Below, piece after piece: positions 6,949-48,263 of a stretch of 64,000 bases of DNA (the first letter of the stretch is position 1; each line of letters begins with the position of its first letter). Made by a program: the position numbers and the translations under genes. Source of the stretch: Candidatus Binatus sp. (lineage in GTDB: Bacteria > Desulfobacterota > Binatia > Binatales > Binataceae); contig NZ_JAUSKL010000122.1 in assembly GCF_030646925.1 (NCBI RefSeq), forward strand, positions 1,365 to 65,364, given 5' to 3'. The notes beneath the pieces are model-generated. The model was not told the origin of the DNA. It saw nothing but the letters and a program-made list of their open reading frames with translations, and did no database searches.

Positions 6949-9013
6949 GCACGACCTCCCTCGACCGATCGACATCGTAGTCGGCGACGCCGCAAAACGC
7001 ATCATCGGTCGCGGTAGTCGCGGCGCTCGCGAGGACTTTCCTCGGCTCATCGCGAACGATACATCTCTCGGCATCGGAATCGATCGCAAAATTCTGCGCC
7101 TGCTGGCGGCGCTCGCACTGATGTTGTGTGGTTTGTCGGGTTGCGGACGGAGCGCGCCGCCTACGCAAAACAATCTGCTTTACAATGGCAACCTGGCGCG
7201 CGGCAGCGGCGACCGTCCCGCCGATTGGTACGCCATCACTTCAAAACGAGACCTGAGCGCGTTTTCGTGGACGCGATCGCCCGACGGCGCCAGCGCGCTC
7301 GAGCTTGCTCATTCCGGACCGAATTACTCGAGCTGGCATCAGCGCCTGATGCTTGCGCCGGGAACTTATCGCGTCAGCGCCGAGGCGCGCATCGAAGGCG
7401 CAACTTCCGGCGGCGGCGCGACAATCGCGGTCGAAGGCGTCGATGGATCTCAATTGACGTCGATTCCGCTGCATCGTTCGAGTGGGTGGGAACAGATTTC
7501 GATCGTGCTCAATGAAGATCGATGGGGAGCGACCACCGAGATCCTCTGCCAGCTCGGTGCGCCGACGAATCCCGACACTGGCCGCGCGTGGTTCCGCGAT
7601 CTCAAAGTTATGCCAATCGTAAATCCAGGCAGCGAAGAATTGCTCGCCGCACAAGTGCATCCGGAGATCCCGTGGCGCGACGATGGCGGCCCGGCGCGCG
7701 CAGGCGGCGCGATTTGCGGGATCGCGCTGTATGGCTTGCTGGCGTGGGCGCTCGTAGCGATTTGGCGACCGCCGCTGGCGACCGGCCGCAACGCCGCGAC
7801 GCTCGCGATCGCCGCGATGCTCGCGATCACCGCGGTCAAATTCGCCGCGCTGTTCCACTTTACCGGCTACTTCTGGGACATCTGGTCGAAGACGAATCGC
7901 GCCTTGCTCGCGGCGGAACTCGGCCCTTCGCGAATCTACGATCCCGGCCTGCCGATCGACGCTTATCCGCCGGGCTCGCTCTATGTCCTGTGGCTTTCCG
8001 GATCGATTGGCAGGATGCTCGAGCCCAGCGCCGATGGCTTTCGCATCATCGTCGAGACGCCGCCGCTGATTGCCGACTTCCTGATCGGGCTAACGCTCTA
8101 CTTCGCGACGTGGCGCGACGGACGCACGCTCGCTGCGTTTATCGCGATGCTGATGTTCGCGCTGAATCCGGCGCTGATCTACGACACCACGGTGTGGGGT
8201 CAGAGCGATTCGATCGTCGCGCTGCCGATGATCGCCGCGACTGTGCTGATCCTCGCCGGCCGCTACCGCCTTGGATGGATTGCCGCGGCGATTGCGATTC
8301 TCGCCAAGCCGCAGGCGCTCGCGACGGTGCCGATACTCGGACTCTGGACGTTGTTCAGCGCGGGCATCGCGGAAACTGCGGTATGCGTCGTTGCGTTCGG
8401 CGCAACCGTCGTGCTCGGAATCTTGCCGTTCCAGTTGGGGCATCCGTGGAACTGGACTCTCAACGTGTACCAGGACCTGAGCACGCGATACAGCGCGGCT
8501 TCGGTCGGCGCGTTTAATTTTCACGCGTTGCTCGGCGGGATCGAGGAGTCGGATACCGACTTGGTGTTCGGCGTATCGTATCGCACGCTGGGCTTTTCGC
8601 TGACGTTCGCGGTCTATGCGCTAACGGCGTGGATGATTTGGCGTGCGCGATCGGCGTCAGCGGCGATACTCGCGATCTTCGTCACACTGCTGGGGTTTTT
8701 TCTGTTCACGCCGCGGATGCACGAGCGGTATCTCTACTATCCGCTGGTGTTTATCACGTTGATTGCGCTCGAAAAGCGGTTTCTGACTTTGGTATTTGCG
8801 GCTTTGACCGGGACGCTTCTATTCAACCTCATCTACATGAAGCATCTGACCGACACCTCGACGTATTTTGCGGATGAACCGACCTGGCCGATTCTCACGG
8901 CGTCTGCGATCAATCTGGCGGTATTCGTCGCGGTCGCGGGCTACGCTTTTCTGCGGACGCGCGACGCAGCGGGGCAGGGCGGCGACTCGATCGATTTCAC
9001 TCGAAGCGTCTGA
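6947..9013 (+). CDS. membrane glycosyltransferase-like protein: lipobox, jelly-roll (CBM-like) domain and GT-C-type polytopic domain
   Basis: Track ORF 6806..9013. RKILRLLAALALMLCGLSGC looks like a lipoprotein signal. A beta-rich roughly 170-aa domain follows. The multi-TM domain has ALG6/PMT-like loops (IDAYPPGSLYVLW, WGQSDSI). The start is uncertain: candidates are ATG 6947, ATG 7121, or a non-canonical codon near 7079. Confidence 0.6.
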   Translation: MHDLPRPIDIVVGDAAKRIIGRGSRGAREDFPRLIANDTSLGIGIDRKILRLLAALALMLCGLSGCGRSAPPTQNNLLYNGNLARGSGDRPADWYAITSKRDLSAFSWTRSPDGASALELAHSGPNYSSWHQRLMLAPGTYRVSAEARIEGATSGGGATIAVEGVDGSQLTSIPLHRSSGWEQISIVLNEDRWGATTEILCQLGAPTNPDTGRAWFRDLKVMPIVNPGSEELLAAQVHPEIPWRDDGGPARAGGAICGIALYGLLAWALVAIWRPPLATGRNAATLAIAAMLAITAVKFAALFHFTGYFWDIWSKTNRALLAAELGPSRIYDPGLPIDAYPPGSLYVLWLSGSIGRMLEPSADGFRIIVETPPLIADFLIGLTLYFATWRDGRTLAAFIAMLMFALNPALIYDTTVWGQSDSIVALPMIAATVLILAGRYRLGWIAAAIAILAKPQALATVPILGLWTLFSAGIAETAVCVVAFGATVVLGILPFQLGHPWNWTLNVYQDLSTRYSAASVGAFNFHALLGGIEESDTDLVFGVSYRTLGFSLTFAVYALTAWMIWRARSASAAILAIFVTLLGFFLFTPRMHERYLYYPLVFITLIALEKRFLTLVFAALTGTLLFNLIYMKHLTDTSTYFADEPTWPILTASAINLAVFVAVAGYAFLRTRDAAGQGGDSIDFTRSV

Positions 9014-9134
9014 CATCCAGCTTGGGAAAATGCACCGTCCGCGGCATTGGCGGGGTGCTTCAAATGCCATCCTGAAGAAATTGCAGCATCAGCCGGTTCG
9101 CTCCGGCACGAACAAATGCGCCGCGGTGCGCCGG
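8945..9134. repeat. junction copy J1: 3' end of the GT-C gene, spacer, and a decayed 3' end of an alpha/beta-hydrolase gene
   Basis: Aligns by eye with 12012-12135 (J2) and 13000-13130 (J3); aligned strings are given in the findings. Confidence 0.65.
9060..9134 (-). pseudogene. C-terminal remnant of an alpha/beta-hydrolase paralogue
   Basis: Minus-strand translation PAHRGAFVRAGANRLMLQFLQDGI* parallels the intact C-terminus GAGHFVHQEKPDHVNRLMLQFLRQGI* at 13057. Stop codons lie immediately upstream in frame. Confidence 0.5.
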
Positions 9135-9181
9135 AGGCTAAGGCAAGATCGCTCAACCGAACCAGAAATAAACTGCCAAGC
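9116..9181. repeat. 66-bp direct repeat, copy 1
   Basis: atgcgccgcggtgcgccggaggctaaggcaagatcgctcaaccgaaccagaaataaactgccaagc compared with copy 2: 7 mismatches counted by eye. Confidence 0.8.
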
Positions 9182-9494
9182 CGGGGTTTAATCAGCGCGT
9201 TGTCCGCTGATGATGAAACAATACATAAACAATCAGTGTTTTTATCGCGCTTTTTCGGGCATCTAAATCCTAGACGTTTACGTTTATGATATGGAGTATT
9301 TGAGAAATAGGACAATGGTCTTCTTTCCGCTAAGGCGGCGTGGTCCGGGTCGACCTCGTTCGCTGTAAGGTTGATGAATGGCTTTTTCGAAGAACGCGCG
9401 ATGAACTCTTCGCGGTGACAGCCATCTGGATTCCAAATCTATGCTAAACGATTGATAAAACGGTTCAATGGCAGTTGCGTAGTGGCATGGACAT

Positions 9495-9560
9495 ATGCGC
9501 CGTGAGGCGCCGGAGGACAAGGCAAGATCGCTCAACCGAACCAGAAATAAATTGCCGAGC
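9495..9560. repeat. 66-bp direct repeat, copy 2
   Basis: atgcgccgtgaggcgccggaggacaaggcaagatcgctcaaccgaaccagaaataaattgccgagc. Offset of 379 bp from copy 1, with AT-rich DNA between them. Confidence 0.8.
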
Positions 9561-9743
9561 ACCATAACCGAAAGGGCTTCTTGTCCGTGATTGAAATGAC
9601 AGGGTCTAAACATAGTCAGGCCGTTGGTTATTTCATGAAGAATATCGGCTATATTCTAGACCTCCCTGTTTAGGATCCGTTGCGTAATAGTGTTTGCGTT
9701 CCCCGCCGACCCCATGTATCCTGATGAATTACGAGGTAGAACC

Positions 9744-9953
9744 GTGGAAGACAACAGCGTGAAGGACCTTACGAAATCCATGCGTGCGCTGCTTCTGGTG
9801 CAGCTCCAGGCGCAGATTGCGCCCGACGACAGGGAAAAACCCGAGGTGCTCCTATCCCGAGCCGGATTCGCGGCGCGCGAAATTGCGGAATTGCTGAGGA
9901 AGAGCCCGGCCGCAGTCGCGAAGGCGATTCAGCGGTCCGAGAGGGGGGAGTAG
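9744..9953 (+). CDS. mini-HTH protein 1 (sigma-70 region-4-like)
   Basis: Track ORF 9690..9953. Preferred start is GTG 9744, six nt after GAGGT (9733-9737). HTH AREIAELLRKSPAAVAKAIQR. Confidence 0.55.
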   Translation: MEDNSVKDLTKSMRALLLVQLQAQIAPDDREKPEVLLSRAGFAAREIAELLRKSPAAVAKAIQRSERGE

Positions 9954-9959
9954 CGAACA

Positions 9960-10196
9960 ATGGCCACAGGCGGACCCGCCACGATTGACGACCTGTTGAA
10001 ACAGGCGAAGACGACAAACCGTCTTCTTGCGGCGCAACTAAAGGCCCAAATGAGCCAGATGGACCTCATTGCCCTCTTAGACGACTCCGGCCTGACGGCT
10101 CGGGAGATCGGCGAGATTCTCGGCACATCACCCGCGACAGTGGCTGTGACCCAACAGCGCCTGAGAAAGAAGAAGATGAAAAAATCGGAGGAGTAG
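9960..10196 (+). CDS. mini-HTH protein 2 (sigma-70 region-4-like)
   Basis: 78 aa, with a GGGGGAG RBS. LTAREIGEILGTSPATVAVTQQRLRKKK resembles sigma region 4.2. Confidence 0.6.
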   Translation: MATGGPATIDDLLKQAKTTNRLLAAQLKAQMSQMDLIALLDDSGLTAREIGEILGTSPATVAVTQQRLRKKKMKKSEE

Positions 10197-10202
10197 TCGC
10201 CT

Positions 10203-10388
10203 ATGCCAAAGAACTTCGATTCCGGGGAGCGTGTCGTCGAACTGCTGCGGGCGCTGATTATCGTGCAGCTTGGGTTGGCCGGAGTTGGTCAGGCGCAGAT
10301 TCGGAAAATTGTCGGGGGCTCCATGAATGACATTAATGCGATCGTTAAGTTACTTCGCTCGGGGCGCCGCGGGCAGGTGAAAGAATGA
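10203..10388 (+). CDS. mini-HTH protein 3 (most diverged)
   Basis: 61 aa, with a GGAGGA RBS. Same helix-plus-HTH plan (LLRALIIVQL ... QAQIRKIVGGSMNDINAIVKLLR). Confidence 0.5.
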   Translation: MPKNFDSGERVVELLRALIIVQLGLAGVGQAQIRKIVGGSMNDINAIVKLLRSGRRGQVKE

Positions 10389-10468
10389 GTACTCCTACTG
10401 AAGAGCGGAGAACCGCGGAATTGCTCAATCGAAACGACTCAGGACTTATTCATCTTTCTAGGAAATGA
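10385..10468 (+). CDS. 27-codon bridging ORF (possible decayed paralogue or coupling relay)
   Basis: Not in the track. Its ATG overlaps the upstream TGA (ATGA), and its own TGA overlaps the ATG at 10465. Product MSTPTEERRTAELLNRNDSGLIHLSRK. Confidence 0.25.
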   Translation: MSTPTEERRTAELLNRNDSGLIHLSRK

Positions 10469-10683
10469 ACATCATGGAGAACAACGGCAATTCGCTCGCG
10501 GATGAACTGCGGGCCGTGAAAATGCTTCTCATTCTTCAGGCGCTGGCTTTGGGCTGTCAGCAAAAGCACATCGCGGCCGCGCTCGGCGTCAGCGAAGCAA
10601 CGTTGAGCCGGATGCTCCCGAAAGGCTTCGGCAAGGAAATCGCCAAAATTGCCGACCGTCGTCTTGGCGCGGAGGCCACATAG
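10465..10683 (+). CDS. mini-HTH protein 4
   Basis: 72 aa. MLLILQALALGCQQKHIAAALGVSEATLSRMLPKG. Confidence 0.6.
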   Translation: MNIMENNGNSLADELRAVKMLLILQALALGCQQKHIAAALGVSEATLSRMLPKGFGKEIAKIADRRLGAEAT

Positions 10684-10685
10684 TC

Positions 10686-10862
10686 ATGACCGAAGAACAG
10701 GCCGCCGCCATCCTCAAGGAGCTCGAGATGTTGCGGAAGCTGAAACTGCTTGAACTTCTCGACAACGGTTATTCGCAAGGGCAGCTCGCAAAGCTTTTAG
10801 GCGTGAGTCAGCCGACTATCAGCCGCATGGTTCCAAACGTTTCCTTGAAGAAGGCGCGATGA
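10686..10862 (+). CDS. mini-HTH protein 5 (below the ORF-track size cut-off)
   Basis: Translated by hand: MTEEQAAAILKELEMLRKLKLLELLDNGYSQGQLAKLLGVSQPTISRMVPNVSLKKAR. GGAGG RBS. Its stop overlaps the ATG at 10859 (ATGA). Confidence 0.6.
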   Translation: MTEEQAAAILKELEMLRKLKLLELLDNGYSQGQLAKLLGVSQPTISRMVPNVSLKKAR

Positions 10863-11899
10863 CGGCCAAAACTTCAGTGGTCAATTGGGCCGGCGACTAC
10901 GAAGAAACCTGCATCCAGCTAGGCAAGCATCTCGGGAAAAATAAAATCCGCCGAATGCTGTTCGGCGCCATCTATGGTCGTGGCTCCAAGCCGCGTTCCA
11001 AGAAGCAGTTGATGGCCGAGGTCGGCCTTAAGGCCAGCCACGCTCAGCAGGCGCAGAACCAACTCGACCACCTTTGGCGCTATGGGCTAATTGAGCGAAA
11101 TGAGAACGAGGGGGCGGTGGCTGACGGCAGCTGCTATGTCTACAGCAAGGAGCCAAACGTTGGCGCGCACCGCAAGAAGATCGTCCAACACGCCGACAAG
11201 CCTGCTCTCGCGAAAAAGACGCCGACCAAGCGCAACCCGATGGTGCGTGGCATGACGGTCGTCGTCAAACCCGTCGTCAGGCGAAGCACGCTGAAAAAAA
11301 ACAAGCACCTCGACGTGCTTTACCTTATGGCCAACCCAATCAGGAAGCACAGCCTGCGCGTGGACGCCGAGGTGAGAAAAGTCTGTGAGGAGATCCGCCG
11401 TTCGCAATATCGCGACAACATCACGCTTCACCAATCGCCTGCGGCCGACCTCACCACCATTATTCGCGGCCTCAACGATCATCGGCCTGGCATTGTGCAC
11501 TTCTCGGGTCACGGTAATGCCGACGGCTTGGCGACCGACGACGGCGGCGTTAAGCGCACGAAAACTCAATTCGTCACGTTTGATCTTCTCGGCAAAGCCC
11601 TTGCTGCGACTGACGACCCTCCGAAAGTCGTCGTCTTAAACGCCTGCCGAAGCGCCGGAGCGCGCGGAGCGCTCTTCGGTACGGCGAAGGCCATCATCGC
11701 CATGCAAGACTCCATCGGCGACGCTGCCGCGGTAGCTTTTGCCACGATGTTCTATGGTGGCATTGCCAGCGGCCAGTCGTTGCAGTCAGCCTTCGAACAA
11801 GGTTGCGTCGCAGTGGAATCTGTTTCTCTACGAGAAGCGGCAACGCCAAAGCTGATTACTGCAAATGGCGTCGATGCGAAGAAACTCAAGCTGGCGTAA
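10859..11899 (+). CDS. winged-helix-like N-terminus fused to a minimal CHAT (caspase-fold) protease domain
   Basis: 346 aa. Catalytic-dyad contexts IVHFSGHGNADG and VVVLNACRSAG. CHAT-typical LDVLYLMANP start of the domain. N-terminal segment KKQLMAEVGLKASHAQQAQNQLDHLWRYGLIERNE looks like a wHTH. Confidence 0.8.
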   Translation: MTAKTSVVNWAGDYEETCIQLGKHLGKNKIRRMLFGAIYGRGSKPRSKKQLMAEVGLKASHAQQAQNQLDHLWRYGLIERNENEGAVADGSCYVYSKEPNVGAHRKKIVQHADKPALAKKTPTKRNPMVRGMTVVVKPVVRRSTLKKNKHLDVLYLMANPIRKHSLRVDAEVRKVCEEIRRSQYRDNITLHQSPAADLTTIIRGLNDHRPGIVHFSGHGNADGLATDDGGVKRTKTQFVTFDLLGKALAATDDPPKVVVLNACRSAGARGALFGTAKAIIAMQDSIGDAAAVAFATMFYGGIASGQSLQSAFEQGCVAVESVSLREAATPKLITANGVDAKKLKLA

Positions 11900-12011
11900 C
11901 TCATATGAGCGGTTATCGCGCCGGACGCGGCTTCGCCAAGACGCAGCACCATCACTGTTCCCCTGACTTCCGGCTGTAACTCGATCCGCGCGCGCCCTAC
12001 TGAACGCACCA

Positions 12012-12135
12012 ATAACGCTTTATTGCGCCCGCGCGACGACGCAGGGCAGGGCACCGAGTAATCGATTTCAATCGACGCGTCTGACGTCCAACTCTTGAAG
12101 AACGGAGTCGGAAGAGGTCATTGGCAGAGCGCGCA
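12012..12135. repeat. junction copy J2 (GT-C 3'-end-like plus spacer-like sequence)
   Basis: acgctttattgcgcccgcgcgacgacgcagggcagggcaccgagtaatcgatttcaatcgacgcgtctgacgtccaactcttg parallels 8945-9025. Confidence 0.6.
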
Positions 12136-12138
12136 GAT

Positions 12139-12570
12139 TTAGACAGCCTCGCGTTTCGGCTCGATCTCCGGAAAGAATGCTCCGGCTGGCAGATGAAAGC
12201 GTCGCGATAGTGCCTGGACCTGCCGTACGTTGAGTTCGCGCTTTCCGCGCAGGATTTCAGAGACCACCCCCTGGCTGCCGATTTCGGGCAGATCTCCCTG
12301 CGACAGGCCGTGCTGCTCCATCAGGAATTTGAGCAGTTCGACGCCCGAAGCATCGGGAATCTGATGGTGTTCCTCGTCGTAGGCCTCGATCAGTACGCTC
12401 AGGGTATCGATGAAGCGGTAGCGGGGATCCTTGGGGTTGTCGCCGACCTCGTCGACCAATTCGTTGAGCTGCGCGACTGCCGCGTCGTATTCGCGCCCGT
12501 TGCGGATGGCGAGCAGGGGAGCGTACTTCTCGGGATTCCTGAGGGTCTGAGTGATCGTTCGACTCTTCAT
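12139..12570 (-). CDS. higA: HigA-type antitoxin (XRE-family HTH)
   Basis: Track ORF 12139..12831 trimmed to the ATG at 12570 (MKSRTITQ...). C-terminal HTH GLSQGDLPEIGSQGVVSEILRGKRELNVRQVQALSRRF. ATGA overlap with higB. Confidence 0.85.
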   Translation of the reverse strand: MKSRTITQTLRNPEKYAPLLAIRNGREYDAAVAQLNELVDEVGDNPKDPRYRFIDTLSVLIEAYDEEHHQIPDASGVELLKFLMEQHGLSQGDLPEIGSQGVVSEILRGKRELNVRQVQALSRRFHLPAGAFFPEIEPKREAV

Positions 12571-12866
12571 TTTTTCCAGTCGCCTTTGTCGTATTGCGCA
12601 TGAGTTAGGACGTGCCGGATGAACAGTTTTTGCGTATTGAAATGGATCGCGGCAATGAGCCGGTACTTGTTGCCGCCAATATCGAACACGTAAAAACCTT
12701 TCCTGCCGGCACTCACATAGTCGACGCTTTTGAATGTCTGTTTCAGTTCCGCGAGATTTTTGAAACTGCCTCTTCTCGCGGCCTTGAACCAGGTTTTCAG
12801 CGGGGCTTCGGCGCCAGCGTGAACCTTCCAAAACTCCGTCAACGCCTTCCGCGAGATTACGTGCAC
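12567..12866 (-). CDS. higB: HigB-type toxin (RelE/ParE superfamily mRNA interferase)
   Basis: 99 aa. MHVISRKALTEFW...FDIGGNKYRLIAAIHFNTQKLFIRHVLTHAQYDKGDW is typical of this HigB family. Toxin-first gene order. Confidence 0.85.
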   Translation of the reverse strand: MHVISRKALTEFWKVHAGAEAPLKTWFKAARRGSFKNLAELKQTFKSVDYVSAGRKGFYVFDIGGNKYRLIAAIHFNTQKLFIRHVLTHAQYDKGDWKK

Positions 12867-12999
12867 GAACGAAGACTATCTCATTTCGCGATACATATCA
12901 ACTCAATATGAGATGGCGCAGGCCAGCAAAGCACGCGGGGCCTCGCCAGGCCTCGATTCTATCCCCTACCCTAGAGAGATCGCGATCCCCGTTCGCAGC

Positions 13000-13130
13000 G
13001 CAGGATGGCAGGGCCGACGTCCAGCTTGGTAAGATAGACGCCGTCCGCAAGACACTTCAAATACCTTGCCGAAGAAATTGCAGCATCAGCCGATTGACGT
13101 GATCGGGTTTCTCCTGATGCACGAAATGGC
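13000..13130. repeat. junction copy J3 (residual GT-C 3' bit, spacer, and 3' end of the intact hydrolase gene)
   Basis: gacgtccagcttggtaagatagacgccgtccgc ... cttcaaataccttgccgaagaaattgcagcatcagccgatt parallels 9012-9100. Confidence 0.65.
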
Positions 13131-13944
13131 CGGCGCCCGGCACCACGTCGATCTTCAATCCGCGCGGAAACAACGCTTCCATCCCGCTAAGAAGTTCCGC
13201 CCCGATGCATCCATCGTCGCGCCCATGGAACATCAGCGTCGGCACCTCGATCGGCGCGGCCATCGCAGTTGCGAGCGCGCTCGGTTGCGCCGGAATCTTC
13301 AGCACCGGGCCGAGCGTCGCGCGATAGTAGCCGAGCGCCGCCTCGAGGGTGCCCTTGGCGCGGAAGCATCGCTTGAGCGCTTCCATTTCCGGCTGCGTCC
13401 AGTTCCAGCCGGGCGACCAATCGCGCCACATCTTTTCGAGGAAAGCAAAATCGTTGAGGCTGACCGCGGTCTCCGCGATCGCAGTCTGGAAAAAGAACAT
13501 GTACCAAGAGCGCCTTTGCTGCGCGTAATTAGTCACCAGCGCCTGGAAAAAACTGGTTCCGTAGGGAACAGCGGCGGTAATTAGTTTCTGCACGACATTC
13601 GGCGCCCGTGCCGCCGCGCCATAGGCTGCGACCGCACCCCAGTCGTGCCCGAACAGGACCGCCTCCTGATAGCCGAGCGCTTCGATCAGAGCGAGCGCGT
13701 CTTCCGACAACACCGGCGAATCGTAGCGGCCGTCGGGCGCAGGCTCGGTCGGCGCATAGCCGCGCATGAACGGCGCGACGGCATGATAACCCGCGTCGGC
13801 GAGCGCCGGCATCTGATTGCGAAAGGAGTGCGCCGTGTCAGGAAACCCGTGCAGGCATAGCACCAACGGCCCTTCGCCGATCTCGAGCACGGTGAAGTTC
13901 AGCTTCGACGCTCGCACCACTCGCTCGTTCATTTGTGCCGCCAT
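13057..13944 (-). CDS. alpha/beta-fold hydrolase (epoxide-hydrolase-like)
   Basis: 295 aa. HGFPDTAHSF oxyanion region, nucleophile elbow GHDWGA, C-terminal GAGHFVHQEKP. Confidence 0.85.
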   Translation of the reverse strand: MAAQMNERVVRASKLNFTVLEIGEGPLVLCLHGFPDTAHSFRNQMPALADAGYHAVAPFMRGYAPTEPAPDGRYDSPVLSEDALALIEALGYQEAVLFGHDWGAVAAYGAAARAPNVVQKLITAAVPYGTSFFQALVTNYAQQRRSWYMFFFQTAIAETAVSLNDFAFLEKMWRDWSPGWNWTQPEMEALKRCFRAKGTLEAALGYYRATLGPVLKIPAQPSALATAMAAPIEVPTLMFHGRDDGCIGAELLSGMEALFPRGLKIDVVPGAGHFVHQEKPDHVNRLMLQFLRQGI

Positions 13945-14340
13945 GCTGCCTCTCTTTTATAACACTTTTCCGCTTGGCTATTTCGCGCGAAGTGTCGGCT
14001 CGCGGAAGAATCTCGCGCCTAGATATGCCGTCTTGCCGACCTCATAGCCCGGCCCTGCGTATCTCGCGATGCTAGAATCCATTCGTCAATCAGTCGCGCT
14101 CGAACCGCTTATTCGCCTTTTGCGGCCAGGCCTCGCGATATAGCGGATCGATGCACCATCCTGTATTGTCAGTGGCCTCGACGGCAAGCACATTTGCCCT
14201 CCCGCTTTCGGTTCGAAGGCCCCAAGTGAAAATGTGCGGATGCCGGCCGCCCGGATGTTCATGGGCAATCGGGCTGCCGAAGCCTCGCTCAGCGCGCAAG
14301 CAATCAGGCGTGCGCGAGAGTTCAGGCCGAGAACGGAACA

Positions 14341-15282
14341 GTGGAGCGACGAATGGCGATTACGAACACCAACACCCGCGCGATTTTCTCACCGACCTAT
14401 CGGCCGTGGGAGCAGCGCTGGTACGCAGCATCGGGACCGGACATCGGAGTGTTCGCCTGGATAATGTTGATCCACGCGACGGCGCTGGCCGGCCTGGTGA
14501 TGTTTCCTCTGCCCGGATGGCCGCTCTTTTTCGGCGCGCTGGCGCTCGCGTTCGTCGGCGGACTCGGCACTACGGTCGCCTATCATCGTGCGATCGCGCA
14601 TCGCAGCGTCACGCTGAATCCATGGGCGCGCGGCGTGCTCACGTTCGTCGCGATGTTCAACGGTTCGGGTGCGCCAGCGTCGTGGGCGTCGCGCCATCGC
14701 CAGCATCATGCACAGGCGGATACTGCCGACGACGTCTCGAGTCCGATCTTCGGCGGCTTCTGGTGGGCGCATCTCCGATGGCTCTGGCAAACCGGGCCCT
14801 CGCCGATGGATCGCTACGGCCGCGATCTCAAGGCCCCGACGTACATCATCTGGCGTTATTTCCAGATTCCGATTCTGACGCTCTCGTATCTCGGCCCGCT
14901 GTATTTCGGCCTCGCGGCGTTTTTCTGGCTCGGCGCGATTCGGCTCTGCTTCGCGCTTCATGCGCAATGCTTCGTCAACAGCGTCTGCCACACCGAACCT
15001 GGAATCGTGCCGGGTGAGGATTCGAGCCGCAACGTGAGATGGCTCGCTGTGATGCATATGCTGCAGGGCGAGAATTGGCATCGCAACCATCATTCGCGGC
15101 CCGGATGGGCGCGGCTCGGGTGGAACTGGCGCCAGCCCGACGTTGGCTACGTTGTCATCCTTGCGCTCGAGCAACTCGGCCTCGCGTACGACGTTCGCGA
15201 TGGCCGGCCGCGTGCGAACCTGAAGGCGCGCGATCCGCGCGAGATCGCCGGCGATCAGGACGCGCTCGATCCGGCCGCGTAA
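14341..15282 (+). CDS. membrane fatty-acid (acyl-CoA/lipid delta-9-type) desaturase
   Basis: Three His boxes (HRAIAHRS, HRQHHAQAD, HRNHHSRP) with TM segments. ATG 14353 is an alternative start. Confidence 0.85.
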   Translation: MERRMAITNTNTRAIFSPTYRPWEQRWYAASGPDIGVFAWIMLIHATALAGLVMFPLPGWPLFFGALALAFVGGLGTTVAYHRAIAHRSVTLNPWARGVLTFVAMFNGSGAPASWASRHRQHHAQADTADDVSSPIFGGFWWAHLRWLWQTGPSPMDRYGRDLKAPTYIIWRYFQIPILTLSYLGPLYFGLAAFFWLGAIRLCFALHAQCFVNSVCHTEPGIVPGEDSSRNVRWLAVMHMLQGENWHRNHHSRPGWARLGWNWRQPDVGYVVILALEQLGLAYDVRDGRPRANLKARDPREIAGDQDALDPAA

Positions 15283-15426
15283 GCGCTCGCGCCGAATCGT
15301 CCGGGAGCTAAAGCTTCTTTGCGACGATCAGAACTGCCACCAGCAACGCCGGCTCGATGCCCGGGTTGGTCTACGCGTGATTGGTGCCGCGCTGCACCAC
15401 CACGTCAAACGCCTTCAGTTTCAACG
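15272..15426. repeat. direct repeat copy 1: desaturase 3' end, spacer, and decayed cupin 3' end
   Basis: Aligns with 17040-17194, e.g. gcgtgattggtgccgcgctgcac[c/t]accacgtcaaacg. Confidence 0.75.
15308..15426 (-). pseudogene. C-terminal fragment of a cupin gene, with an in-frame stop
   Basis: Paralogous to the 3' end of 17076..17609. The intact gene reads aatcacgcttggac (NHAWT); the fragment reads aatcacgcgtagac (NHA*). Confidence 0.65.
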
Positions 15427-15579
15427 CCCAATGAACGCATTGGAGTGATTGGGCCGCTTCGTCCGCACCTTGAAAACCCGCAGTCCTGGAGAGCGTAACA
15501 GTGGATGTTGCAAACGGTGGTCGCGGGGGGCGAGACTGGTTCGGTTCCGCTTGGCTGAATCATTCTCGGGGGTCATCGT

Positions 15580-16440
15580 TTGGCTCCGGCTCAAATCGAC
15601 CGCGCGCCAGCTCATTCGCTCGTTGGGCGCGAGCGAGAAGCCGCGCTATTGATCGCGGGCCTCGACGACGCGATCGCCGGGCGCGGCCGACTGTTCCTGA
15701 TCTCGGGCGAGCCGGGAATCGGCAAGACATGGCTGGCCGATGAGGTTGCGAGGCACGGCGATGCCCGCGGGATGCGGGTGGCATGGGGCCGATGTTGGGA
15801 GGGCGGCGGTGCACCCTCATACTGGCCGTGGGTGCAAGTGCTGCGCTCACTTGTCGTTCATCCGGATCGGACGCGGGCGCGGCCGCCGCTTGTCACGCCG
15901 GAGATTGGTCAGCTAATCCCCGAACTGTCATCTGAAACGAATAGACCGACTCCGTCGGATCCAGATCAGGCGCGCTTTCGGCTCTTCGATGGCGTCGCCA
16001 CGATGCTAAGGGACGCGGCACGATCGCAGCCGCTGGTTCTCATTTTTGACGATTTGCACGAAGCCGATCAGACCTCGCTCGAGATGCTCAAGTTTGTAGC
16101 GCGCGGATTGCGCGACTCTCAAATCATGGTCATCGGCACTTTCCGCGATGTCGAAGTACGGCGTTCGCAGATGCTTTCGGAGGCCATCGCCGAGATTGCC
16201 CGTGAGGGCGATCAAATTGTGCTGACGGGACTGACCGAGCGCGAAGTTGCGCAGATGGTTGAAGAACGGGCTGTGCTCACGCCGACCTCGAGTTTTACCG
16301 CGGACCTGCATCGGGCGACGGCGGGCAATCCTCTATTTATCGATGGCGTGGTGCGCGTGCTGATGGCCGAAGGCAAGCTTGGCCAGGCGACGCGGCTCGA
16401 TCTGAGCGGCTTCAAGCTGCCAGAAGGCGATTACGTAGAG
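15580..16440 (+). pseudogene. 3'-truncated AAA/STAND-type ATPase (N-terminal NTPase module of large LuxR/TPR-type regulators)
   Basis: LVGREREAALL...GRLFLISGEPGIGKTWLADE (Walker A), LVLIFDDLHEAD (Walker B). The family-like sequence ends near KLPEG at about 16430; the rest of track ORF 15580..16782 is low-complexity read-through. Confidence 0.6.
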
Positions 16441-16484
16441 ACCGCCCGCCTGTCCGCTCGGCTCAGCGGTCACGGAGTTCTCTC

Positions 16485-16937
16485 ATGCTCGGCGCGGGCA
16501 GCCCGAACGCTCGCGCCGACGAGCCGATCGTCGGTCTGTGGCAGGCGACGTGGACCGACGTGGATACCAATGCCGTCGTCGCCAACCTCTGGGACGTCTG
16601 GCACAGCGATCGCACCGAGACTCAAAATGACAGCGGACCGGTGCTCGCCGGGTTCGTGTGTCAGGGCGTCTGGATCCCTATGGGCCAGCGTACCTATGGA
16701 CTATCGCACCCCTTCTTCTCGTACACTGGGGCGGACGGGCATCTGGACACGACCAGCAGCTCCGTGGTTTACGAAAAAGTGACCGTGTCCAAGGACCGCA
16801 AAAGCTTCGCCGGGAATGGGATCATAAAGGTGGTATCGGGCATCAACCCGTTTGATCCTGGCGCCACTTTGCTCTTCTCGGAGAATATTAAAATTGCCGC
16901 AACTCGCGTGACGGTCGATCCCAGCCAGCTTCCTTGA
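16485..16937 (+). CDS. hypothetical beta-rich protein, probably 5'-truncated (no signal peptide)
   Basis: 150 aa with protein-like composition. The N-terminus ...GSPNARADEPIVGLW looks like the region just after a lost signal peptide. Confidence 0.4.
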   Translation: MLGAGSPNARADEPIVGLWQATWTDVDTNAVVANLWDVWHSDRTETQNDSGPVLAGFVCQGVWIPMGQRTYGLSHPFFSYTGADGHLDTTSSSVVYEKVTVSKDRKSFAGNGIIKVVSGINPFDPGATLLFSENIKIAATRVTVDPSQLP

Positions 16938-16961
16938 CTTTGACCGCGTCAGTGGCAGGGG

Positions 16962-16984
16962 CGGCCGGATCTAATGTCCGGCCG
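16962..16984 (+). terminator. hairpin downstream of 16485..16937
   Basis: CGGCCGGA-tctaatg-TCCGGCCG, a perfect 8-bp stem. Only a weak T tract follows. Confidence 0.3.
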
Positions 16985-17039
16985 TTCCAACCCCAGCGTG
17001 CGTCTTTAGAGTCACGGACTTGTGTCCGAGAGACCGATC

Positions 17040-17194
17040 TCGCCGCGTAATCGCTCGCGCCGATCGCGCACCCTGCTAGAGCTTTTTGGCGTCGATCAGA
17101 ACCCCCGCCAGCAGCGCCGGCTTGGTGCCCGGATTAGTCCAAGCGTGATTGGTGCCGCGCTGCACTACCACGTCAAACGGCTTTAACTTCACGT
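17040..17194. repeat. direct repeat copy 2 (desaturase-3'-like bit, spacer, 3' end of the intact cupin gene)
   Basis: ccgcgtaatcgctcgcgccga ... gctagagctttttggcgtcgatcagaac... parallels 15272-15426. Confidence 0.75.
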
Positions 17195-27059: not shown

Positions 27060-27060
27060 T

Positions 27061-38652: not shown

Positions 38653-38922
38653 TCAGCCGCGCGCGACGCGTTTGATGCCGGCATCCTTTAGCTCTTCTCG
38701 CACCGCTCGGCGCACGACCGCCTCGATTCCGCCGCGTCGCATGTGCTCGCGCAGCGCTTCGTTGATCAGGGATTGGTAGTTGCCGCCGCCCATCGCATGG
38801 ACCTGCTCGCGGAAATAATCGAGAACCTTGTTGTCCAGCCGAATGGTGATCCTGGTCTTGCCCGGCTCAGGCGGTACGACCGCGCCACGCTTGCCCTTGC
38901 TGAAATCGTATTCGCGCTTCAT
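38653..38922 (-). CDS. BrnA-like (CopG/RHH-type) antitoxin, apparently orphan
   Basis: MKREYDFSKGKRGAVV...RITIRLDNKVLDYFRE...GGGNYQSLINEALREH is typical of the BrnA family. No toxin ORF is adjacent. Confidence 0.65.
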   Translation of the reverse strand: MKREYDFSKGKRGAVVPPEPGKTRITIRLDNKVLDYFREQVHAMGGGNYQSLINEALREHMRRGGIEAVVRRAVREELKDAGIKRVARG

Positions 38923-39080
38923 GTCTTTTGCTTTTCGTACTCCTCGCGTATGCACAAGCGTACATAACCAGCGGCGGTCCGTCCACGGAGCCGTCCCTCG
39001 CGGATTGTTGCCCGAGTGCCTAACCGGAATCGTGTGATTGGATTTGTTCACTTATCGCGCATCCGGCGCTATAGTCCGCC

Positions 39081-42954: not shown

Positions 42955-43090
42955 CGTGTCATTTCGAGCGCAGCGAGAAATCCCGGATCCGGGTTTCACG
43001 CCTCGTCGCAAGGCTCACTCGGGATGACACGGAAACGCTCCGCTCCACTTCGTCATCTTGAGCGGAGGCCGCCGGAGTCAAAAGACCTCG
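42955..43090. repeat. REP/MITE-like palindromic element, copy 1 (inverted relative to copies 2 and 3)
   Basis: gtgtcatttcgagcgcagcgagaaatcccggatccggg...ctcactcgggatgacac hairpin, plus a gcggaggccgccggagtcaaaag unit. Confidence 0.7.
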
Positions 43091-44116: not shown

Positions 44117-45436
44117 ATGAGCCTCGACGCGAAAGCTGATTCCTTCAAAACGCGGCGCAAGCATTTCATGGAGCGCATCGCAGCCGGCGCAACCGCGATC
44201 CTGCCGAGCGCGCCGGTCGCGATCCGTTCCGGCGACGTCGAATTCATCTATCGGCAGGACAGCGATTTTTACTACCTGACGGGTTTTGCCGAGCCCGAGT
44301 CGGTCGCGGTTTTTTCACCGGGGCATCCCGACGGCGAATTCGTGCTGTTCGTGCGGCCGCGCGATCGCGAGCGCGAAACGTGGACCGGCCGGCGCGCGGG
44401 AATCGAAGGCGCGATGATCGATCACGGCGCCGACAAGGCGTATACGATCGATGAACTCGAAAAAATCCTGCCGCGCTATCTGGAAAAGAGCGAGCGTGTG
44501 CACTATCCGCTCGGGCTGAACGAAAAGTTCGACGAGCGCGTGCTCAAGATGGTCCGCTGGGCGCAGGCGATGCGCCCGCGGCTCGGCGTCGGGCCGACGG
44601 TGCTGATCGATCCGCGCGACATCATCCACGAAGCGCGGCTGATGAAGGAAGAGGCCGAGATCGCGGCGATGCGCCGTGCGATGGAGATTTCCCGCGAGGC
44701 GCATCGGCAGGCGATGCTGAAAGCGCGCGGCGGGATGAAGGAGTGGCAGATCGAGGCTGAGGTCAACTACGCGTTTCGTTCGCAGGGCGCCGCCGGACCG
44801 AGTTATCCAACGATTATCGCGTCGGGGCCAAACGCGGCGACGCTGCACTATATCCAGAACGATCGCGAGATGCGGACAGGAGAGCTGCTGCTGATCGACG
44901 CGGGCGCCGAATACGATTATTACGCGGCCGATATCACCCGCACTTCACCGATCGGCGCGAAATTCACCCAGTTGCAGCGCGACTTGTATCAAGTGGTGCT
45001 CGATGCGCAGCTTAAAGCGATCGACGTGATCAAACCGGGCGCGCGCTTTGACGACCCACATAATGTTGCGCTGCGCGTGCTGGTCGATGGGATGCGCGGA
45101 CTCGGGATGTTGCAGGGTTCCGCCGACGAGATCCTCGAAAGCGCCAGCTACCGGCGCTTTTATATGCATCGCACGAGTCACTGGCTCGGCATGGACGTGC
45201 ACGACGTGGGACTTTACCGCGTCGGCGGCGCGTCGCGAGTGCTCGAGCCGGGGATGGTTCTCACAGTAGAGCCGGGGCTGTATATCGATCGCGACGACGA
45301 CACGGTGCCGGAGAGTTTTCGCGGCATCGGCATCCGAATCGAGGACGACATCCTGGTGACGGCGAACGGGCACGAAGTGATGACTGCCGCGACGCCCAAG
45401 ACGATCGCGGACGTCGAGGCGCTCACCGCCGGGTGA
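44117..45436 (+). CDS. pepP: Xaa-Pro aminopeptidase (M24B)
   Basis: YRQDSDFYYLTGF N-domain; M24 metal ligands in the context LIDAGAEYDYYAADITRT ... HWLGMDVHD. Confidence 0.85.
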   Translation: MSLDAKADSFKTRRKHFMERIAAGATAILPSAPVAIRSGDVEFIYRQDSDFYYLTGFAEPESVAVFSPGHPDGEFVLFVRPRDRERETWTGRRAGIEGAMIDHGADKAYTIDELEKILPRYLEKSERVHYPLGLNEKFDERVLKMVRWAQAMRPRLGVGPTVLIDPRDIIHEARLMKEEAEIAAMRRAMEISREAHRQAMLKARGGMKEWQIEAEVNYAFRSQGAAGPSYPTIIASGPNAATLHYIQNDREMRTGELLLIDAGAEYDYYAADITRTSPIGAKFTQLQRDLYQVVLDAQLKAIDVIKPGARFDDPHNVALRVLVDGMRGLGMLQGSADEILESASYRRFYMHRTSHWLGMDVHDVGLYRVGGASRVLEPGMVLTVEPGLYIDRDDDTVPESFRGIGIRIEDDILVTANGHEVMTAATPKTIADVEALTAG

Positions 45437-45467
45437 GTAATTTGCCTTAGGTATAACAGGCGTCAGG

Positions 45468-45556
45468 AGCCGTTCCGTGTCATCCCGAGCGAGCCCGGCG
45501 ACGAGGGAACCCAGATTCGAGATCCTTCGACTCCGGCAGCCTCCGCTCGGCAGTCG
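45468..45556. repeat. REP/MITE-like element, copy 2
   Basis: ccgtgtcatcccgagcgagcccggcgacgagggaaccc ... gatccttcgactccggcagcc. Confidence 0.65.
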
Positions 45557-45794
45557 AGGGCAATCACTGCGGGCTGAACGAAGCTTTTCGCGCGCGGAAA
45601 TGAGAGCGCGCTTGCCGTCAGCGGGCGACCTAGGCGCCGTCGATCACCAGCGGATGCCCCGTCACGAACGACGCCGCATCGGACAGCAGCCAGAGCACGC
45701 CCTCCGCGATTTCCTCCGGCTTGCCCATTCGGCCTACCGGCTCGCCCAGGGTGAGATCCTGTTCGCTGAATCCCTGCGTGTCGAGCAGCCGCTC
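45557..45794. repeat. 238-bp direct repeat, left copy (61 bp of spacer plus the last 177 bp of the SDR gene)
   Basis: Identical to 48026-48263 except at 45631, 45664 and 45777 (3 mismatches counted). Confidence 0.95.
45618..45794 (-). pseudogene. duplicated 3' fragment of the SDR gene carrying a TGG-to-TAG change
   Basis: The left repeat copy reads GA*VAR* where the intact gene reads GAWVAR*. The mismatch is at 45631. Confidence 0.85.
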
Positions 45795-45918
45795 AGATCG
45801 GTCAACTGTCCTAAGTATCTTGCCAATCCTTTGTTCAGGGCGTGATTAGGCGGCAGACGCGATCAATGATGGGATACCGCCCCCGCCTTTCACGGGCCCT
45901 GTCAGACTGCGTTTTGGG

Positions 45919-46890
45919 CTATACCCGAGGGCGTAGCGCTAACCTGCGCCGAACAATCAAGCCACGAAGCAGCGACTCTCGCGTTGGCTCCGTGGATAGT
46001 GATCTGAGTTTGGGGTCGTTGAGACCCTCGTACAGGTTCGAGTTTCTGTACTCAGAGTACACGGCCTCTTTTAGGCTTTCATTCCGAGTCAGCCAGAGCT
46101 CGCCGTCTTTCAGCCCTCGTGGCAGGGCGCAGCAGTAGAGTAAGTGGTGTTCGGCAAACCTTTCGACCACACCGAGAACCAATGGGGCGTTCTCGGTCAA
46201 ATTGGTGATCTCAATCATCGCCGCTTCCGCACCTGCCGCCTTCATCTGCTTGGCGGTATCTTCGAGGAAGCCCTCGACGCCTCTGACGCCATTGCTGACG
46301 TCGACCGGTATCTCGTTTCTGCTCGCGCGCTCGCTTCTCAAGGCGTGGATAAGACCAACGACCGAGGCTGCTCCAGCGATTCTGAAGGCACTATCACTGA
46401 TTCCCCCGACTAAACCTGCAGCCACCAGGACGACAGCGAAAGAGGATACTACTTCGAACAACACGCGAGCGACGGAAGCCATGACGGTCTTTGAGCCCTT
46501 GATGTCCGCGAAGAGCGCAGTGACCGCCTTACGCTCGCCTTCGATAAGAGGTGAAGCGTCTAGCTCTGCTCGCATTTCCTGTGCGTCCTTTGGACCAAAA
46601 ATAATTTCCTTTGCGCGGGCCTGTTTCATGAGTTCGGTAGCAGTCTGTTCCGGTGCAATGCGAACGCCGGAGGCTGATTCTGGCGGCGACGACGTGGCGT
46701 TTACGGCACCCGCACCATTAGTGAGTGGAGCGCCGCACTTGCCACAGAAGTCGGATGTCGGCGGGTTTTTCGCCTTACATTTTGCGCAGAGTTTGGTGAG
46801 CGCTTTCCCGCACCGCGCGCAGAAACTATTGGTGGAGGGATTATTCGTCCCGCATTTTGGGCAGCGCATCGATGTACCCCCGACAACCAA
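45919..46890 (-). CDS. chimeric protein: double zinc ribbon, first strand of a class III cyclase domain, two hydrophobic segments, unknown C-terminal domain
   Basis: CPKCG..CARCG..CAKCK..CGKCG, then EGERKAVTALFADIKGS (start of a cyclase homology domain). After that the sequence is unrelated to cyclases. Confidence 0.55.
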   Translation of the reverse strand: MVVGGTSMRCPKCGTNNPSTNSFCARCGKALTKLCAKCKAKNPPTSDFCGKCGAPLTNGAGAVNATSSPPESASGVRIAPEQTATELMKQARAKEIIFGPKDAQEMRAELDASPLIEGERKAVTALFADIKGSKTVMASVARVLFEVVSSFAVVLVAAGLVGGISDSAFRIAGAASVVGLIHALRSERASRNEIPVDVSNGVRGVEGFLEDTAKQMKAAGAEAAMIEITNLTENAPLVLGVVERFAEHHLLYCCALPRGLKDGELWLTRNESLKEAVYSEYRNSNLYEGLNDPKLRSLSTEPTRESLLRGLIVRRRLALRPRV

Positions 46891-46929
46891 CCGACCAGTC
46901 CCTCTTGTATCGCCCAGTGTCAGAAATGG

Positions 46930-47523
46930 TTAGCACGTCGAGTATCTTTGGTGAAGAGCGATCAAAGGAGCGTAGTCTTGCTCGTCCGCCGCTCTAATCG
47001 CGGACAAGTATTGCGTCCGAGCCGCAGTTTGATTCGAGATATCGTTCTCCAACCAATCGATCGGAGCCGAACCGGATCGCTTGATTAAAATGTTGGCTAG
47101 AAGGCGTGACCATCGCCCATTGCCATTGTTAAAGGGGTGAATAAGCACGGCACGATGATGGAGTCGGGCTGCCTGCTCGATTAGGGGATAGCTCTTGTGT
47201 TTGTGCCATTCGGTCAAATCATCGAAGAGATCTTTTAGACGCGAGTCAATCTCATGGGGCGGAGCACCGATATTCGTCTGGGTTATGCGTCGTTTACCTG
47301 CCCATGCCCATACATCCCCGAACATTTCGTGGTGGAGCCGGTAAGCCCACTCGCGCGTAAAGGGCGCCATCCTCTTCGATGGAGCAGTTGCCAGGTACTT
47401 CAGTGTGGCTTTGCTAATGTTCCGCGCTTCTGCGATGAAAAGCTGCTCGCGGGTTTGTATGTGCTCCGGAATCAGCCCGTCTGAGTCGAACGGCGTGGCG
47501 CCCGCGGGTTCGTCACGCATCAA
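46930..47523 (-). CDS. Fic/DOC family protein ('mobile mystery protein B' type)
   Basis: Fic motif HPFNNGNGRWSR. ATGA-type overlap with the upstream HTH gene. Confidence 0.85.
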   Translation of the reverse strand: MMRDEPAGATPFDSDGLIPEHIQTREQLFIAEARNISKATLKYLATAPSKRMAPFTREWAYRLHHEMFGDVWAWAGKRRITQTNIGAPPHEIDSRLKDLFDDLTEWHKHKSYPLIEQAARLHHRAVLIHPFNNGNGRWSRLLANILIKRSGSAPIDWLENDISNQTAARTQYLSAIRAADEQDYAPLIALHQRYSTC

Positions 47524-47921
47524 TTTGACCAGAGGCGTCTCCTCGACCCTGCTGCCAATTTGTCGGCGATCTCTTCCCTAATCTCTAGAAGAGCTTCTTT
47601 AGGAACCGCCTGTGCTTCCAGGGCAGACGTTCCCTGAACCATCGAAGCCAATCTTGTCGCTTTCTGCTCCGCTTGTTCTCTGCGAACCAGACGAGCCGAT
47701 ACGATCTCCCTCGGCATCGGAAACTCAACCCTGAGCGCATGGGCGATGGACAACACGGTGTTGAGAGTCGCATTCGGCTCATTGCCGGAGAGCACGCGTT
47801 GGACAGTTCGCATTCCCAAGCCGGAGCGCTGAGCGAGAATTTTCATGCTCATTCCGATTTCCTTGCGGCGACCGTCGAGATGTCTAAACAGAGCTAAAGA
47901 AAACTTGTTTTGATTTGCCAT
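47520..47921 (-). CDS. XRE-family HTH protein ('mobile mystery protein A' type)
   Basis: MSMKILAQRSGLGMRTVQRVLSG HTH. The start could be 47921, 47927 or 47936. Confidence 0.75.
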   Translation of the reverse strand: MANQNKFSLALFRHLDGRRKEIGMSMKILAQRSGLGMRTVQRVLSGNEPNATLNTVLSIAHALRVEFPMPREIVSARLVRREQAEQKATRLASMVQGTSALEAQAVPKEALLEIREEIADKLAAGSRRRLWSN

Positions 47922-47950
47922 GTTCATAATTACCACTCAACTCAATGGTT

Positions 47951-47980
47951 ATTTTATGCCAGATATAGCTAATATATCAA
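47951..47980 (-). promoter_or_regulatory. sigma-70-like promoter of the cassette operon
   Basis: On the minus strand: TTGATA (47980-47975), an 18-nt spacer, then TAAAAT (47956-47951), upstream of the HTH gene start. Confidence 0.4.
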
Positions 47981-47988
47981 GTGATAAT

Positions 47989-48004
47989 ACGCCAAATTTG
48001 GCGT
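47989..48004. promoter_or_regulatory. perfect 16-bp palindrome ACGCCAAATTTGGCGT at the cassette edge (operator or recombination-site candidate)
   Basis: Read directly. Lies 8 nt upstream of the -35 hexamer and 21 nt from the right repeat. Confidence 0.4.
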
Positions 48005-48025
48005 AGAAGCCGAGCCCGCGGCAAC

Positions 48026-48263
48026 AGGGCAATCACTGCGGGCTGAACGAAGCTTTTCGCGCGCGGAAATGAGAGCGCGCTTGCCGTCAGCGGGCGACCC
48101 AGGCGCCGTCGATCACCAGCGGATGCCCCGTCGCGAACGACGCCGCATCGGACAGCAGCCAGAGCACGCCCTCCGCGATTTCCTCCGGCTTGCCCATTCG
48201 GCCTACCGGCTCGCCCAGGGTGAGATCCTGTTCGCTGAATCCCTGTGTGTCGAGCAGCCGCTC
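48026..48263. repeat. 238-bp direct repeat, right copy (part of the intact SDR gene)
   Basis: See the left copy; constant offset of 2469 bp. Confidence 0.95.

Follow-up and report, generated by a model that had tools for sequence, protein, structure and literature searches.

Gene gain that relies neither on homology with the recipient nor on the machinery of a mobile element is poorly documented beyond a few laboratory systems. In Sinorhizobium meliloti, the capture of foreign DNA into chromosomal breaks through non-homologous end joining (NHEJ) has been shown experimentally (PMC6379672). In Streptococcus pneumoniae, merodiploid duplications of 100–900 kb arise on pre-existing repeats (PMC3784515). 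The orphan arrays of Rhs, contact-dependent inhibition (CDI) and type VI secretion system (T6SS) effector-immunity modules grow at one dedicated polymorphic-toxin locus via a conserved core (PMC5361080), and the microcin H47 island of Escherichia coli carries a small cargo between long imperfect direct repeats (PMC3191183). Here we analyse a stretch of 64,000 nucleotides (positions 1,365 to 65,364 of contig NZ_JAUSKL010000122.1, assembly GCF_030646925.1), hereafter called the window, from a metagenome-assembled genome (MAG) of the uncultured soil bacterium Candidatus Binatus (Binataceae, Binatota). Within about 40 kb of this window, short blocks of genes are repeatedly inserted at junctions between chromosomal genes, each of them enclosed by two direct copies of the local junction. 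The window has a GC content of about 61%, and the best matches of its ThiI protein are Binatus/Binataceae MAGs, which reach 86% identity when the whole protein is aligned; a single partial match reaches 91%.

As in merodiploidy and in Campbell-type integration, the kind seen with suicide vectors or circular donors, heterologous DNA lies between two direct copies of one contiguous stretch of the chromosome, the element itself need not supply a recombinase, and the repeats can later recombine and release the insert (PMC3784515). Unlike those duplications, the events in the window are natural, small and multiple, have no known junction-carrying donor, and in one instance involve only about 20 nt. 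NHEJ capture in S. meliloti (PMC6379672) resembles the window in being a homology-independent insertion of linear DNA by host repair, and Ku and LigD are both encoded in the Binatus genome as well; the duplications of 60–240 nt would need a further, hypothetical step of copying or fill-in. The Rhs/CDI/T6SS orphan arrays are comparable in that modules are added beside a conserved gene end, remnants keep the conserved piece, and direct repeats and tandem accretion occur without an integrase (PMC5361080); the sites in the window, in contrast to their single dedicated locus, are different housekeeping junctions. Long imperfect direct repeats around a small cargo without an internal recombinase gene are likewise found in the H47 island and the cis-mobilizable elements (CIMEs), whereas the H47 att sites are widespread and specific and are served by a trans-acting function (PMC3191183), and the repeats in the window are local junctions without a common core. 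Accretion in the orphan arrays is of the type of homology-facilitated illegitimate recombination (HFIR), which in its classical form yields deletions, while the window shows duplications. The set has its outcome in common with Campbell-type integration and merodiploidy, and its independence of an element's own enzyme with all of these systems. It differs from the known systems in its recurrence at ordinary housekeeping junctions, its variable duplications and its lack of a known donor. The reading that suits it best is a variant of additive integration mediated by the host, and not a new family of mobile elements.

The repeat pairs were found by comparing the window with itself, a more sensitive search being necessary for case 1. 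They are numbered as case 1 (CHAT operon and higBA), case 2 (AAA_16 ATPase), case 3 (hybrid kinase) and case 4 (HTH/Fic). A preliminary description made from the sequence had named four cargo blocks with long junction repeats. All of the repeat pairs are present at the places given there and are far beyond chance, while the number of events rises to five, since case 1 consists of two nested events. The duplications are about 20, 61, 156, 157 and 238 nt long and the cargos 0.9–2.9 kb, and every cargo is flanked by two complete, co-linear copies of one contiguous junction. In cases 1 and 2 the repeat comprises the whole spacer together with the ends of both convergent genes, and in case 3 a promoter-like leader. 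No further exact direct repeat of at least 17 nt was found within 9 kb of its partner in the window. The cargo types named earlier were also borne out, namely a CHAT protease, HigB/HigA, a truncated AAA_16 ATPase, a hybrid histidine kinase and an HTH/Fic pair.

When about 70 open reading frames (ORFs) of the window were scanned against Pfam, no integrase (Phage_integrase, rve), resolvase or transposase domain was detected, in agreement with the earlier statement that such genes are missing from the 64 kb. The cargos are filled entirely by their own genes, so that there is no space for integrase remnants, and the cargo proteins have no relatives on viral contigs. Neither the window nor 13 related loci contain tRNA genes. 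A comparison of the four long repeats revealed no common core or motif, and a comparison of the cargos gave no terminal inverted repeats (scores at shuffle level) and no common end motif. Microhomology is not evident at the boundaries between insert and target, though the donor sequences are not known. The insertion-duplication scars of the window are real and stand at an unusual density.

Case 4 lies between an M24 aminopeptidase gene (44117–45436, plus strand) and an intact SDR oxidoreductase gene (48087–48857, minus strand, stop at 48087). The two copies (45557–45794 and 48026–48263) are 238 nt long and differ by 3 mismatches (E=2e-116), and each corresponds to the last 177 nt of the SDR gene together with the 61 nt that follow it. 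The right copy, on the minus strand, runs into the intact SDR gene. The left copy comprises the 61-nt spacer with a hairpin and an orphan 177-nt SDR 3′ end, in which an alanine is changed to valine and a TGG codon to a TAG stop. The cargo (45795–48025, minus strand; GC 0.547) holds three genes, encoding a zinc-ribbon protein (45919–46890, minus strand), the Fic protein "mobile mystery protein B" (46930–47520, minus strand; TIGR02613, above the cut-off) and its HTH partner "mobile mystery protein A" (47520–47936, minus strand). An empty site is found in L085 (GCA_038217945.1, about 87% nucleotide identity), where the stops of the SDR and M24 genes are 14 nt apart. Three Binataceae genomes have the Fic/HTH module, each at a different convergent junction, and only in the window is there a repeat; in L169 (83% nucleotide identity) and L170 (62% protein identity) it sits at two other junctions and has neither flanking repeats nor the zinc-ribbon gene. 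A REP/MITE-like (repetitive extragenic palindromic/miniature inverted-repeat transposable element) palindromic element (45466–45545, plus strand) ends about 10–30 nt before the left repeat.

In case 2, a fatty-acid desaturase gene (14341–15282, plus strand), whose last 16 nt are duplicated at 17035–17050, faces an intact cupin gene (17076–17609, minus strand). The repeats (15267–15423 and 17035–17191) are 157 nt long and about 80% identical (E=2e-34). In the left one, the 16 nt that end the desaturase gene are followed by a spacer of 24 nt and by 116 nt of an orphan cupin 3′ end, in which TGG has become a TAG stop; the right one, on the minus strand, runs into the intact cupin gene. Between them lies the cargo (15424–17034, plus strand), in which a truncated gene for an AAA_16 ATPase starts at 15580 and is accompanied by a 150-aa ORF (16485–16937). 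Three relatives (L086, L087 and L088) represent the empty site, as they pass from the desaturase directly to a 146-aa gene across a terminator. The cupin gene is absent from these three as well and is inserted between the desaturase stop and the terminator, with no detectable flanking repeat. The cupin gene is thus the earlier of two insertions, and the ATPase block with its 157-nt duplication was added afterwards. In the orphan gene-end copies of both case 2 (15356–15358) and case 4 (45630–45632), the stop has arisen by the change of a tryptophan codon TGG to TAG.

Case 3 differs in its target: the repeat is the conserved promoter-like leader immediately upstream of an AhpC/TSA-like gene within a Kelch-AhpC operon, and no gene 3′ end is involved. 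The block is flanked upstream by a Kelch-repeat gene (30212–31489, minus strand) and downstream by the AhpC/TSA-like gene (25392–26996, minus strand). The repeats (26999–27059 and 29959–30019, both minus strand) are 61 nt long with 2 mismatches (E=7e-22). The left copy, which has kept its native place upstream of the AhpC-like gene, is the promoter-like leader (CTCGAC-N17-TAGCAT), and the right copy is a second such leader, now upstream of the cargo; one of the two differences in this cargo-side copy falls in the −10 hexamer. The cargo (27060–29958, minus strand) consists of two genes in the same orientation as the operon, a hybrid histidine kinase/response regulator gene (27061–28839, minus strand) and a 245-aa gene to which no function is assigned (28885–29622, minus strand). 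In about 40 related metagenome contigs the Kelch gene stands directly upstream of the AhpC-like gene, mostly 8–40 nt apart, and the longer spacers among them carry the motif CTCGAC-N17-TAGCAT, which lies inside the 61-nt repeat. Binataceae contigs (L110, L112, L118, L124 and L128) share this motif, in each case a short way upstream of the AhpC/TSA-like gene. Given the conserved operon order and the motif in the relatives, cargo 3 sits within an operon, of which the promoter-like leader has been duplicated.

Case 1 lies between a GT87-like membrane glycosyltransferase gene (6806–9013, plus strand), the last 71 nt of which are duplicated in J2, and an intact alpha/beta hydrolase gene (13057–13944, minus strand). 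Three copies of the junction, J1 to J3, separate two cargos. J1 (8943–9098) is the full ancestral copy, with the GT87 3′ end (8943–9013), the spacer and an orphan hydrolase 3′ end (9058–9098), a fragment of 41 nt that is free of stops. It is followed by Cargo A (9099–12014, plus strand), with a 156-nt flanking duplication, which contains five tandem small HTH genes (9690–10862, plus strand) and a CHAT protease gene (10859–11899, plus strand). J2 (12015 to about 12100) consists of an orphan GT87 3′ end with a frameshift and a stop, and of the first ~20 nt of the spacer. Cargo B (about 12101–13015, minus strand), with a flanking duplication of about 20 nt, contains higA (12139–12501, minus strand) and higB (12567–12866, minus strand), and J3 (13016–13095, minus strand) contains the spacer and the functional hydrolase 3′ end. 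J1 and J2 (8943–9022 and 12015–12093) are 80% identical (E=2e-12), and J1 and J3 (9012–9098 and 13016–13095) align with a local score of 60, while shuffled sequences reach 29 at most. About 20 nt are common to J2 and J3, which at two sites agree with each other against J1. This overlap and agreement give a history in two steps, in which the CHAT operon entered first with a 156-nt duplication and higBA afterwards went into the right-hand copy, duplicating only about 20 nt. No syntenic relative was found for this site. Stop codons in the orphan copy, which the preliminary description had given for cases 1, 2 and 4, are present in J2 and in cases 2 and 4, and the J1 hydrolase fragment has none.

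Several further observations concern case 1. The five consecutive HTH genes encode paralogue-like proteins of 58–87 aa and lie directly upstream of the CHAT gene with partial overlap, which is an unusual operon. PADLOC gave only a weak SAVED_CHAT match for the CHAT operon and hence no membership in a known defence system. A 77-nt direct repeat (87% identical) lies within Cargo A (9105–9181 and 9484–9560), starting 6 nt past J1; a duplicated operator or promoter may have given rise to it, or another nested event. Of the long duplications, the two oldest are nearly equal in length, 156 nt (8943–9098) and 157 nt (15267–15423); this is probably a coincidence, as the other lengths differ (61 and 238 nt in the window, 104–221 nt in L023 and 149 nt in L118).

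The preliminary description had called for a comparison of the same loci among related genomes, and because relatives hold empty sites for cases 2, 3 and 4, these three are insertions. Not all insertions at such junctions are accompanied by a repeat. In L085, a PemK-type toxin module (2084–2883) is present between the MaoC and SDR genes, an 800-nt segment where the window has about 52 nt, and no flanking repeat was found around it. Together with the Fic modules in L169 and L170 and the cupin gene of case 2, this points to a continuum of illegitimate insertions mediated by the host, and away from an element guided by homology. Structures comparable to those of the window occur in two related loci. 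In L023, three copies of the divergent Nudix-ThiI junction (4639–4742, 6885–7105 and 9850–10070) separate two cargos. A cargo ORF of L023 (5877–6959) begins with the duplicated first ~20 Nudix codons. In L118, a 149-nt direct repeat (3087–3235 and 4926–5074; 89% identical), into which the 5′ part of a gene for a PIN-like toxin extends, lies on both sides of 1.7 kb occupied by small genes. These two events in L023 and one in L118 are the only comparable unique repeat pairs in 2.3 Mb of related loci, so that the window exceeds those loci more than 30-fold in the density of such pairs. Many more apparent examples in the ThiI loci of relatives were discarded, as multiplicity counts showed them to be mostly REP/MITE families with several copies per locus.

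We propose that the five structures arose when short pieces of foreign DNA were inserted at gene junctions, with duplication of the target and independently of any recombinase, by the break-repair or replication machinery of the host, and we place the probability of this reading at roughly 0.4. The molecular route is one that we infer, and the sequence alone does not decide on the mechanism. The process would begin with a chromosome break at or near a junction, or with the stalling of a replication fork there. Both ends would then gain the same 20–240 nt, possibly through fill-in of long overhangs, through copying of a short tract from the sister chromosome before repair is aborted, or through a template switch that re-enters upstream of its exit. 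Finally, linear unrelated DNA would be joined between the ends without homology. The genes for Ku and LigD are present at the left of the window, outside every insertion, as context for the proposed mechanism: the Ku gene (2218–3219, plus strand; Pfam Ku, E=9e-46) is followed directly by a LigD gene (3281–5926, plus strand) with primase-polymerase, phosphoesterase and ligase domains, so that the organism has a complete NHEJ system. With the junction duplicated, neither neighbour would lose its end, and in case 3 the promoter of the downstream gene would be retained as well. Since the neighbouring genes or promoter are preserved, the insertion would be harmless and survive, and the surplus copies would decay afterwards. 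If selection keeps only those events that preserve both neighbours, the positions of the repeats are explained, because repeats over spacers and both gene ends, over a promoter, or over divergent 5′ ends as in L023 are what selection on random duplicative insertions is expected to leave. RecA-mediated excision and re-integration among conspecifics could follow later by way of the two repeats.

Several points weigh against this proposal. In the literature we found no bacterial experiment in which NHEJ capture is combined with flanking duplications of tens to hundreds of nucleotides, and the S. meliloti events took place at I-SceI cuts, with no duplication reported (PMC6379672). Four of the five duplications are at least 61 nt long, above the usual homology threshold of RecA, and none falls between about 20 and 61 nt, a length distribution that also fits a homology-dependent process. 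The orphan cupin fragment of case 2 keeps E, V and A as in its nearest homologue whereas the functional copy differs, which hints that the two cupin copies may have diverged as alleles before they were joined; the placement of the fragment among orthologues gives hints only, because the nearest homologues, among 1.8 billion representatives, are just 56–58% identical. Nor does the proposal account for the more than 30-fold enrichment of the window over related loci.

The main rival for the first step is Campbell-type integration, that is, a RecA-mediated single crossover of circular or terminally redundant DNA that carries the cargo and one copy of the junction, or, in a variant, the integration across sister chromatids of a linear fragment with one-sided homology. 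The repeats would then be the homology segment itself, and their divergence would partly be a difference between donor and recipient. Such a crossover with a circle had been suggested in the preliminary description, and it accounts well for the topology, as two complete direct copies of a contiguous segment around heterologous DNA are exactly what a single crossover produces, and for the four repeats of 61–238 nt, lengths that suit RecA. The functional-looking states of the orphan cupin copy speak in its favour too, as do the three junction copies and two tandem cargos of L023, which look as if a site had been reused. Transformation-driven interchromatid integration generates duplications in pneumococci (PMC3784515), and cfr(C) cassettes have circular intermediates that re-insert by homology (PMC10770853). 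It does not say where such a circle would first come from, and it cannot account for the ~20-nt duplication around higBA. It needs either an earlier locus of the form repeat-cargo-repeat or a donor with a truncated core gene, given that the repeats start 16 and 71 nt before the ends of the left genes. As a circle with an uninterrupted junction has to come from such a repeat-cargo-repeat parent, at least one in-situ duplication per cargo is logically required. Neither a circle nor a donor from a conspecific was found; the closest relatives are about 87% identical and have empty sites or other neighbours. When the repeat copies of L023 were set against orthologous junctions from other genomes, neither mechanism was favoured. 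Campbell-type integration is plausible as a second step; as the first step, in either form, we regard it as possible and as somewhat less likely than our proposal.

Insertion by an integrase classically leaves direct repeats that contain the 3′ end of a gene and make that gene whole again, and the structures could be remnants or satellites of integrative elements, similar to CIMEs, in which the repeats are attL and attR and the integrases act in trans or have been deleted. The intact right-hand gene next to a decaying displaced copy in cases 1, 2 and 4 agrees with such an origin, and so does the assignment of the Fic/HTH pair to "mobile mystery protein" families. A small integrase-less island of E. 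coli with long imperfect direct repeats excises and integrates via host-supplied functions (PMC3191183). Four unrelated repeats without a common core would, however, require four specificities; the gene-packed cargos can hold no integrase remnants, tRNA targets are missing, the cargo proteins lack viral relatives, and the same Fic module is free of repeats at other loci. Moreover, the repeats cross the whole spacer into the neighbouring gene or correspond to a promoter, and mimicry of an attachment site needs neither. The suggestion in the preliminary description of a trans-acting integrase with an attP that mimics gene 3′ ends is weakened by the same absence of a shared core, by the inclusion of whole spacers and a promoter, and by the divergent 5′ junction of L023. 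Four absent integrases, each with an att site spanning two gene ends or a promoter, are possible but strained, and we consider this origin improbable. Least credible of all is an assembly artefact, in which strain variants were joined in tandem or, for cases 3 and 4, a circle and an empty site were threaded together by the assembler. The source is indeed a MAG contig, hardly any differences separate the repeat copies in cases 3 and 4, and the Logan contig L172, which is 100% identical to 45747–48055 and joins cargo 4 to both repeat ends, stops inside both repeats and cannot phase them. Yet the repeats of cases 1 and 2 are 20–28% diverged, which makes a collapse of strains impossible there, and an independent Logan contig (L001, SRR13727527), 99.93% identical to 12758–18849, spans all of case 2 and J3. 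The copies differ at 3 positions in case 4 and 2 in case 3, and L172 carries the single-nucleotide variant specific to the left copy of case 4 and so ties the cargo to it; a presence/absence bubble of the cargo would make no duplication unless the repeat were real. With three duplications diverged and independent contigs in agreement, the earlier caveat about collapsed or expanded strain variants has lost most of its force, although for cases 3 and 4 an episome beside an empty site keeps a small probability.

Other known routes were rejected. A transposon or insertion sequence does not fit, as there is no transposase, the scores for terminal inverted repeats are at shuffle level, the cargos share no ends and the duplications, about 20–238 nt, have no fixed length; the preliminary description had likewise held that such long duplications are unlike transposition. 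An integron cassette array would be expected to have an IntI integrase and attC sites at the cassette borders, but there is no integrase and the cargo ends show no common motif or inverted repeat. HFIR does not fit, as the recipient DNA is duplicated and not deleted, whereas HFIR joins one homologous anchor and one microhomology, usually at the cost of recipient DNA. A small tandem duplication preceding the insertion does not agree with the position of the cargo, which in every case is exactly at the boundary between complete copies, and aberrant excision of an integrated circle predicts permuted pieces of the junction and not two contiguous copies.

The remaining part of the window has some features of its own. 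The REP/MITE-like palindromic element of about 80 nt is present three times (42966–43043, minus strand; 45466–45545, plus strand; 57519–57593, plus strand), with the sequence TTCCGTGTCATCCCGAGCGAGC...CGACGAGGGA..., and the outer two copies enclose a 14.5-kb block from SGL to YCII. In most relatives this block is missing between the GT2 gene and the CoA-transferase gene, and in L085 it is inverted and found beyond ThiI, at the opposite flank. At its N-terminus, the ThiI ORF is extended by some 190 aa (36746–37330), a stretch that is kept in many Binataceae and absent from L023, L032, L060 and L085. A BrnA-antitoxin-like gene (38653–39051) lies between ThiI and an MBL-rhodanese gene, where L085 has only a short spacer, and is another small insertion of the toxin-antitoxin type; repeat searches across the window gave no flanking repeat for it, and the L085 alignment is uninformative.

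The scars record the geometry of joining and thus provide a concrete and searchable signature. If this signature were common in genomes with Ku and LigD, gene gain in bacteria would be linked to end joining or to recombination repair that was aborted, and the signature would explain how toxin-antitoxin, signalling and defence-type modules come to land harmlessly between genes. If the process is instead driven by homology, the cassettes would be spreading through the population by RecA alone. In its widest form, to which we give little credence at present, the proposal is that Binatus-type soil bacteria, and perhaps NHEJ-proficient bacteria in general, possess an undescribed kind of duplicative capture, in which inserts of 1–3 kb are taken up with 20–240 bp of the target copied on both sides and the neighbours left intact, and the cassettes then move between conspecifics by homologous recombination. 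If true, such capture would be a transposase-free route by which mobile cassettes are made and spread.

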